A stretch of DNA of 64,000 nt from Longimicrobiales bacterium (GTDB lineage: Bacteria; Gemmatimonadota; Gemmatimonadetes; Longimicrobiales; Gaopeijiaceae): positions 2,368,001 through 2,432,000 of the forward strand of contig CBDAON010000004.1 in NCBI GenBank assembly GCA_965198065.1, read 5' to 3'. Below, in pieces: positions 35,019-36,087 of this stretch. A model generated the notes under the pieces. It worked only from the letters and a program-made list of their open reading frames with translations, was not told the DNA's origin and did not search any database. How positions within the stretch are numbered: the stretch's first letter is position 1; the number at the start of each line of letters is the position of its first letter. Position numbers and translations under genes: made by a program.

Positions 35019-35790
35019 TTACCGCCCGATCTTACGTGCCGTCGGCGTTGTCGCGGTTTCGAGCGTCCGTCCCACCGCCGCGACGAACGGATGTAGCGTT
35101 CATGTTTCCCTGCTTCATCACGTACTCCGCGGCGAGCAGGAGGTCCTCGATCGTCGAGGATGGCCCCCGCTTGAGGAGGACGGGTCGATGGACGCGTCCG
35201 ACTTCGGTCAGGAGCGCGAAGTTCTGCATGTTACGGGCGCCCACCTGGAGGACGTCGGCGTGCCCCGCGACCACCTCGACCTGCCGGGTATCCATGACCT
35301 CGGTCACGACTGGGAGGCCCGAGATGGTGCGGGCGCGGGCCAGGATCTCCAGGCCCTCCTCCTCCAGGCCGCGGAATGAATACGGGGAGGTGCGGGGCTT
35401 GAAGGCACCACCCCGGAGGGCCCGGGCTCCCGCGGAGCTGACGGCGGCGGCCGTCTCGATGAGCATCTTCTCTCCCTCGACCGAGCATGGTCCGGCAATC
35501 ACGACGACCGCGTCGCCTCCGATCTCCACGTCCCCTACCGCAATCCTGGTCGGGCCGGCCGAAAACTCGCGAGCGGCGAGCTTGTAGGGGCGCATGACGG
35601 CATGCACGGCCTCGACCCCCGGCATCGCCAGGAGAGGAACGTGCTGGAGCCGCGCTTCGTCCCCAATGCACCCGATGACGGTCCGACTCTCTCCCCGGGA
35701 CACGTGTGTCCGGAGCCCCAACGCCTCGACCCTCTCCCGGATCTGATCGAGCTCCTCGTCGGTCACGTGGGGGCCTGTTACGATGATCAT
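35019..35790 (-). pseudogene. aroF: DAHP synthase type I-beta with N-terminal regulatory domain; internal deletion plus frameshift near 35100
   Basis: IAGPCSVE, RGGAFKPRTSPYSF, GARNMQNF, LLKRG; breaks after GNMN (no CERG/DPSH segment); a native-looking tail LHPFVAAVGRTL...* resumes in another frame to TAA 35019. Confidence 0.85.
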
Positions 35791-35830
35791 GGCGGCATTC
35801 CTCCTGGCGTTCTGACTGCAAGTGAGAGTG

Positions 35831-35867
35831 AAAAAAAAAATCGGCTTCCGGAGGTCCCGGGAGCCGA
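35831..35867 (-). terminator. Intrinsic terminator of aroF attenuator
   Basis: UCGGCUCCCGG-GACCU-CCGGAAGCCGA (10 of 11 pairs) followed by U10, about 40 nt upstream of the aroF ATG. Confidence 0.9.
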
Positions 35868-35904
35868 GTCGTCACGTGCGCATGTTGCTTTGCTCAGCCG
35901 ATCG

Positions 35905-36051
35905 CTATGCGCACGCCTCCTCGGGGCTCCCGAAGCGGGGCCAGAAGCCGAAGTACGCGAAGTACCGGGCGCGGCGGCGGGTGCGTGACGCCTCGCCCAA
36001 TGGGGCGACGCGAATCCCGCACGTCCAGGGCCTCGTTGAGGGTCGGCGCAT
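35905..36051 (-). CDS. Aromatic amino acid attenuator leader peptide (48 aa)
   Basis: MRRPSTRPWTCGIRVAPLGEASRTRRRARYFAYFGFWPRFGSPEEACA; 7 aromatic residues in an 11-residue stretch; lies between the promoter and the terminator. Confidence 0.8.
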   Translation of the reverse strand: MRRPSTRPWTCGIRVAPLGEASRTRRRARYFAYFGFWPRFGSPEEACA

Positions 36052-36058
36052 GAGGAAA

Positions 36059-36087
36059 AGTGTGTGAGAGGCGTCAGGGGATGTCAA
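36059..36087 (-). promoter_or_regulatory. Sigma70 promoter for aroF leader
   Basis: TTGACA (36087-82), 17 nt, CACACT (36064-59), 7 nt, ATG 36051. Confidence 0.65.

Follow-up and report, generated by a model that had tools for sequence, protein, structure and literature searches.

A conserved putative attenuator with aromatic leader codons upstream of the DAHP synthase gene aroF in Gemmatimonadota

The window analysed here is a 64,000-nucleotide stretch of a Longimicrobiales genome, and the aroF locus within it is read on the minus strand. A −35 hexamer, TTGACA (36082–36087), and a weak −10 hexamer, CACACT (36059–36064; 3 of 6 matches), were read from the sequence with a 17-nt spacer between them. 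CACACT lies 7 nt from the ATG (36051) of a 48-codon leader ORF (35905–36051), which was taken from the ORF list and its translation and is probably leaderless. Codons 30–40 of the leader (35964–35932) translate as YFAYFGFWPRF, giving the aromatic codon cluster Y30, F31, Y33, F34, F36, W37 and F40 (35932–35964). Complementarity places segment 1 of a proposed, weakly supported 1:2 pairing at 35942–35949 and, together with covariation, places segment 2, the antiterminator strand, at 35925–35932. The 1:2 helix has 8 pairs, two of them G–U (−10.8 kcal/mol as an isolated hairpin), and the 2:3 helix has 8 Watson–Crick pairs. An inner helix of the antiterminator (35874–35916) joins 35916–35907, a strand that ends in the leader stop codon, with 35883–35874 through 10 pairs; the 2:3 and inner helices together amount to −38.6 kcal/mol. 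The predicted intrinsic terminator hairpin 3:4 (35841–35867; −16.7 kcal/mol, one C–A mismatch) is followed by a U10 tract (35831–35840), by AGGAGG as the ribosome-binding site of aroF (35800–35805) and by aroF itself (35032–35790), a class I-beta DAHP synthase gene identified by its NF006421 match and shown by strain comparison to be a pseudogene in this strain. The promoter hexamers, the ORF with its aromatic run, the GC hairpin with its U-tract and the four competing helices had all been described in the original prediction, and each was recovered at its position with the complementarity proposed.

Single-copy sequence signals are modest. A consensus promoter/terminator scanner reported neither a promoter nor a terminator at the leader; the −10 box, which falls below its threshold, is weak and the hairpin is mismatched. 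The fold z-score of the leader was −1.83, with 10 of 200 shuffles equally stable. The leader is also the longest of 76 compared (range 21–48 codons, most 25–29), and its aromatic codons lie at offsets of −32 to −2 nt relative to segment 2. It is conservation that raises the leader above chance.

The original prediction had correctly placed aroF downstream of the terminator and had overlooked that the gene is truncated. The match to NF006421 covers only positions 1–238 of 338, and the product is 252 residues long; approximately 280 nt are missing at ∼35097, out of frame, and the native C terminus resumes in another frame, ∼280 nt further on in relatives. Runs X1, X2 and X6, drawn from two studies and with X1 perhaps the source sample itself, all have contigs with the short form. 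In runs X3 and X7, from sister strains in other studies, an additional ∼280 letters stand at 35097, and X4 also breaks there; in the sister strains aroF is intact. An assembly error was considered as the origin of the short form and rejected, as the X1, X2 and X6 contigs span the junction unchanged and those of X3 and X7 hold the extra letters. The aroF deletion is a real strain-level event. Because the controlled gene is broken, the claim that a shortage of an aromatic amino acid derepresses pathway entry through this leader likely does not hold in this strain, where read-through would yield a truncated enzyme.

A family search of the genome gave a full-length class I-alpha DAHP synthase (locus L192, C4:368330–369358, minus strand), which led to rejection of aroF as the sole DAHP synthase of the genome. 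This class was found in 3 of 61 genomes, including this one, and its gene has no leader by rule. Neither a class II DAHP synthase nor a prephenate dehydratase (PF00800) was found in the genome (87.6% complete), nor was the second class I-beta paralogue that is common in relatives; aroB, aroC, a TrpE-like gene, trpA, chorismate mutase and tyrA are all kept. The class I-alpha enzyme likely supplies pathway entry in this strain, was likely acquired and may have freed aroF to decay. With the same queries, no class I-beta or class I-alpha DAHP synthase was found in G001, a member of the same genus with a 1.6-Mb genome (92% complete); this reduced genome may have lost pathway entry.

Comparison of the leader with those of the sister strains that keep an intact aroF revealed few differences, with the aromatic codons unchanged. 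In one sister strain a change at 35850 turns a G–C pair of the terminator into G–U, two substitutions fall in the inner helix among the sister strains, and the U-tract has 7, 8 or 11 U in other runs; no indel was seen inside the leader ORF across the runs compared. None of the runs listed as carrying the sequence was an RNA dataset, a result that has no bearing on expression. These data bear on the view that the element no longer functions in this strain and is decaying, for which we regard the case as evenly balanced. The out-of-frame deletion carried by X1, X2 and X6 from two studies fits such decay, as do the exceptional length of the leader, the mismatch in its terminator and the intact class I-alpha enzyme, rare among the genomes searched. 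Set against these, the leader is nearly identical to those preceding intact aroF and keeps its aromatic codons; furthermore, the long leader and mismatched terminator are common to the full-length-aroF relatives L031 and L033, and therefore both predate the deletion. The switch itself probably still works in this strain.

For the analysis of conservation, orthologues of the class I-beta DAHP synthase were collected, and leaders were sought with a rule blind to peptide content. The strict form of the rule asked for a TTG-type box 33–39 nt before the start codon, an ORF of 15–60 codons and a hairpin with a U-tract, and it gave a leader and terminator at 68 of 117 unique aroF loci, the window's own counted. 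Under a relaxed rule, 106 of the 159 aroF orthologue loci examined in Gemmatimonadota had a leader and the other 53 had none; of these 106 leaders, 103 hold at least three aromatic residues in 12. The aromatic-codon cluster that the original prediction had suggested looking for upstream of relatives' aroF genes is thus conserved at most loci. Of the leader residues, 11.3% are Tyr, 5.5% Phe and 3.3% Trp, whereas the remaining two frames give 1.0, 1.8 and 1.1%, respectively, and at least four aromatic residues in 10 occur in 57 of the 68 peptide-blind leaders versus 109 of 13,600 shuffles. Paralogous DAHP synthases gave 0 of 20 with a leader under a stricter rule, a weak control given that many lie inside operons, and two homologues from another class had no leader by rule.

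The nearest named relatives are Gemmatimonadota, many of them labelled Longimicrobiales, and leaders of this type also occur beyond that order, in families f4 and f5 of further orders in the class. In genera g6 and g54, the aroF orthologues examined (L136–L144, L146, L220, L222, L223 and L227) had no leader by rule, and the attenuator was possibly lost in these whole genera. L079, an aroF-pheA locus, lacks a leader because a coding region runs up to the gene. Upstream of aroF at L096, two leader-like short ORFs stand in tandem; the first, Tyr-rich, ends 345 nt upstream of aroF, and the second lies closer.

Spacing of the promoter was regular. In 65 of 66 leaders the ATG is preceded at a distance of 35–38 nt, with a mode of 36 (the rule allowed 33–39), by a TTG-type −35 box, and such a box was also seen in leaders chosen without a promoter rule. 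Among relatives, A is enriched at −12/−11 and T at −8/−7. A Shine–Dalgarno-like motif precedes 1 of 76 leaders, as against 55 of 76 aroF starts. Because the −35 box stands ∼36 nt before the ATG and a Shine–Dalgarno motif is lacking, transcription likely starts at or adjoining the A of the leader ATG, so that the leader would be leaderless.

For the amino acids concerned, codons were counted from −42 to −10 nt relative to segment 2 in 73 leaders. Tyr occurs in 71 of these, Phe in 41 and Trp in 35; all three are present in 21, Tyr and Phe in 20, Tyr alone in 16, Tyr and Trp in 14 and none in 2. The leader family is Tyr-dominant. The proposal that one leader reports the charging of all three aromatic tRNAs therefore has partial support, Tyr being nearly universal and the other two occurring in part of the family; in this copy W37 is borderline and F40 falls outside the predicted effective range.

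Operon content was assigned by tblastn with chorismate mutase (CM), TyrA, PheA and ArgH. The 32 leaders of loci in which chorismate mutase and/or prephenate dehydrogenase comes after aroF together contain 123 Tyr, 29 Phe and 3 Trp codons, with Trp in 3 of 32, and 5 leaders over aroF-pheA contain 17 Phe, 11 Tyr and 4 Trp. The 62 leaders over aroF alone (none of those genes within 1.3 kb) contain 156 Tyr, 97 Phe and 63 Trp; Trp is present in 47 and all three aromatics in 30. The tyrA group forms a single clade with weak support (0.72). Five leader-bearing switches away from tyrA lie within that clade, and Trp is present after four of them (L159/L165, L209/L210, L208 and L163) and absent after the fifth (L155). 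The leader of L152, the sister of L159/L165, is rich in Phe and lacks Trp, and three leaders of the Longimicrobium clade retain Trp over tyrA. That codon content tracks the operon is suggestive, with few events behind the pattern.

Codon presence is no proof of sensing, since the aroR leader of Corynebacterium glutamicum, with Phe-Tyr-Phe, is described as responding to Phe and not to Tyr (PMC11802643). That case also favours a narrower form of the attenuator, compatible with the main reading, in which only one or two amino acids are sensed (Tyr, or Tyr and Phe) and Trp codons persist as tolerated neighbours of TAY and of TGG/CGG-type codons, or are placed where a stall matters little. We give this a little less than an even chance. 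It agrees with Tyr being found in about twice as many windows as Trp, with the borderline position of W37 in this copy and with the closest relative, L031, whose leader keeps just one Tyr and one Phe. It accounts less readily for Trp at three times its other-frame frequency in the same window as Tyr and Phe, and for the scarcity of Trp over aroF-CM-tyrA compared with lone aroF, which is unexpected from drift alone, though the tyrA group is one clade; in addition, the trp genes of this genome have no leader by rule. The fullest form of the attenuator is one that we put forward tentatively and think somewhat improbable as a whole: a Gemmatimonadota-wide leaderless attenuator would integrate Tyr, Phe and Trp at the entry to the pathway, with its codons retuned per operon (rich in Tyr where aroF-CM-tyrA follows, rich in Phe where aroF-pheA follows, and with all three classes before a lone aroF), would form part of a set of aromatic, His, Cys and Thr leaderless leaders through which the phylum controls amino-acid synthesis and would have been orphaned here after takeover by the class I-alpha enzyme.

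Covariation was examined in a MAFFT alignment of 64 of the 73 leaders, from which 7 leaders whose segment-2 anchor was poor and 2 near-duplicates had been removed. Kin in the alignment are not independent, and the figures are not to be read as probabilities. For helix 2:3, 84% of cells are paired and 7 of 9 pairs have changed on both sides; none of 500 shuffles scored as high and slid registers gave 28–54%, in a test that leans towards structure as the sequences were cut relative to their best complement. For terminator 3:4, 96% of cells are paired and 9 of 10 pairs have changed on both sides (64 sequences), and segment 2 and the terminator arms change jointly in several sequence classes. A swap test was modest: the cognate duplex gave −18.8 versus −16.4 kcal/mol, and the cognate was best for 7 of 68 arms, with 38 of 68 beyond 95% of codon shuffles. 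A fixed-register 1:2 helix was 55% paired versus 52% in shuffles and was set aside as unsupported, barely exceeding its controls. A short hairpin does fold at the 1:2 position in most leaders, and it beats 95% of shuffles in 16 of 73.

In the stalling model the ribosome occluded positions −15 to +13 relative to the A site, and footprints of +10, +13 and +15 were compared on W37. Sliding-ribosome equilibrium folding of the full-length leader was mostly uninformative and was replaced by a nascent-transcript version. In the latter, the mean sequestration of the terminator arm across 64 leaders is 0.74 as far as the last aromatic codon and has dropped to 0.46 three codons further on. Aromatic codons are concentrated 39 to 10 nt before segment 2, and the last of them lies 13–14 nt before it in 31 of 73 leaders. 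For this copy, the predicted 2:3 probability is 0.40–0.94 with the ribosome on codons 30–36; 0.92, 0.68 and 0.11 on W37 for the three footprints in ascending order; and 0 from codon 39 to 47, so that a ribosome stalled on F40 never permits the antiterminator in the model and the last Phe comes too late. The inner helix has a probability of 0.97 until the ribosome reaches approximately codon 43. The 1:2 helix, complementary as it is, is hardly populated in the model, its probability with the ribosome at the stop codon being at most 0.05. The full-length model is less favourable to a switch: 2:3 forms again once the stop codon is reached (probability 0.98), the terminator partly forms with the ribosome on Y33–W37 so that this copy gives no clean switch, and in most relatives the terminator prevails for almost every position of the ribosome.

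Taken together, conservation, covariation and geometry support well the original identification of a ribosome-mediated attenuator, and we hold with high confidence that the leader is a classical transcription attenuator of DAHP synthase. The His-, Cys- and Thr-rich leaders of like layout elsewhere in this genome, before hisG, cysH and thrA, and the published aroR-aroF case point the same way. A short ORF carries a codon cluster for the end products of the pathway, and an intrinsic terminator is predicted, from structure and covariation, between leader and structural gene. The antiterminator excludes the terminator and has its 5′ strand inside the leader ORF, the modest swap test notwithstanding, and the regulatory codons (with the reservations for W37 and F40 given above) are placed to leave segment 2 free on a stall. 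Downstream, a functional biosynthetic gene is lacking in this strain and is present in the full-length-aroF relatives and sister strains.

In the proposed mechanism, DAHP synthase would be transcribed when charged aromatic tRNA is low, chiefly tRNA-Tyr or tRNA-Phe and, in many lineages, probably tRNA-Trp. With a ribosome stalled on Y30–F36 (W37 being borderline), segment 2 would stay available for pairing with the 5′ arm of the terminator, and RNA polymerase would read through. A moving ribosome would instead cover segment 2 and then the inner helix (codons 38–47) while segments 3 and 4 emerge, and with both covered the terminator would form. In the folding model the choice between antiterminator and terminator is likely kinetic, because, by the time the ribosome is at the stop codon, the 1:2 helix lacks the strength to keep segment 2 paired.

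Whether the leader peptide could instead be a nascent-chain sensor of a free amino acid (TnaC-like), or the RNA be switched by a protein or ligand, without regard to tRNA charging, was also weighed. The family-wide Arg/Gly-rich C-terminal half of the leader peptides and the imperfect switch in the equilibrium model would suit such a device, which we nevertheless judge quite improbable: the peptide is not conserved beyond codon class, and the frame in which segment 2 is translated takes two forms among relatives, so that the RNA and not the peptide is constrained; furthermore, no Rfam riboswitch or T-box was matched in the window or in the loci of five relatives. A chance assembly of a GC-rich intergenic region, a terminator and a fortuitous short ORF, although consistent with the low fold z-score and the silent scanner, is contradicted by the comparative counts, the covariation, the codon geometry and a strict rule that, of 71 candidate short ORFs in the whole genome, matches 3, all of them rich in the amino acid that their operon serves, and we consider it extremely unlikely.

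The classical attenuator favoured here shares with the E. coli trp, pheA, his, thr and ilvGMEDA leaders its regulatory leader codons, a 2:3 antiterminator and a 3:4 terminator; the E. coli leaders begin with a 5′ UTR and form a strong 1:2 helix, whereas the Gemmatimonadota leader is predicted to be leaderless with a weak one. The thr and ilv leaders sense several amino acids. Leader-codon ribosome attenuation is described for E. coli trp and pheA (PMC11802643). Closest in arrangement, as far as the cited descriptions go, is aroR-aroF of C. glutamicum, where a short leader ORF with mixed aromatic codons precedes a DAHP synthase gene (Mentz et al. 2013, PMC4046766; PMC3890552); ribosome stalling raises transcription there, as is proposed here, and the Gemmatimonadota leader differs in being Tyr-dominant, often with Trp, and in belonging to another phylum. 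The Acholeplasma element uORFC-13-1, for which attenuation has been proposed (Brewer et al. 2021, PMC8632094), likewise combines a uORF and an intrinsic terminator before aroF; as outlined in that report, it differs in its ribosome-binding site and a U-run for Phe, and has 24 representatives from Acholeplasma and environmental sequences. An attenuator sensing Tyr-tRNA is likewise predicted in the Shewanella aroF leader (PMC2659441), which is described as gammaproteobacterial and as preceding a Tyr-sensitive enzyme. Mycobacterial polycysteine leaders are leaderless short-ORF attenuators that head operons (bioRxiv 10.1101/834739) and resemble the present leader as leaderless amino-acid sensors; their output, by that account, is gating of a downstream ribosome-binding site, whereas here it is predicted to be an intrinsic terminator.

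Searches of catalogues returned nothing equivalent. Rfam (Trp, Phe and His leaders, T-box and others) gave no match in the window at gathering score and none at E values up to 1 in the loci of five relatives, and NCBIfam gave no match for six leader peptides. In a literature search that left most subscription journals outside, no report of an attenuator in Gemmatimonadota was found; nor was a Tyr/Phe/Trp leader before DAHP synthase, and additional aroF leaders may be recorded in subscription journals or in the supplements of motif surveys such as PMC8632094. Attenuation of DAHP synthase is already published as a kind, and the mechanism is textbook. The leader is a real, conserved and uncatalogued element, most probably an attenuator of a known type. 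It adds to the phylum an RNA family absent from Rfam and an unannotated small ORF, and offers a natural series on how one leader weighs three amino acids and on whether codons follow operon content. With its aroF broken, this copy does not lend itself well to such tests.

The three genome-wide matches to the strict rule are the leaders of aroF, hisG and cysH. A relaxed scan gave 22 matches among 781 candidates, including a Thr-rich leader before thrA; the other 18 relaxed-scan matches had no clear amino-acid cluster, and none lay before trp genes. The hisG, thrA and cysH leaders, all on the minus strand of C4, are recorded here as observations in their own right. A candidate his attenuator consists of a His-rich leader and terminator before hisG (TIGR00070 above cut-off; C4:1280963, L229). 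A candidate thr attenuator has a Thr-rich leader and terminator before the gene for a bifunctional aspartate kinase/homoserine dehydrogenase I (C4:2472857, L234). A candidate cysteine attenuator has a Cys-rich leader and terminator before cysH and a sulfite/nitrite-reductase-like gene (C4:1122989, L230) and, unlike the mycobacterial polycysteine leaders as described in the preprint cited above, would act through its terminator.
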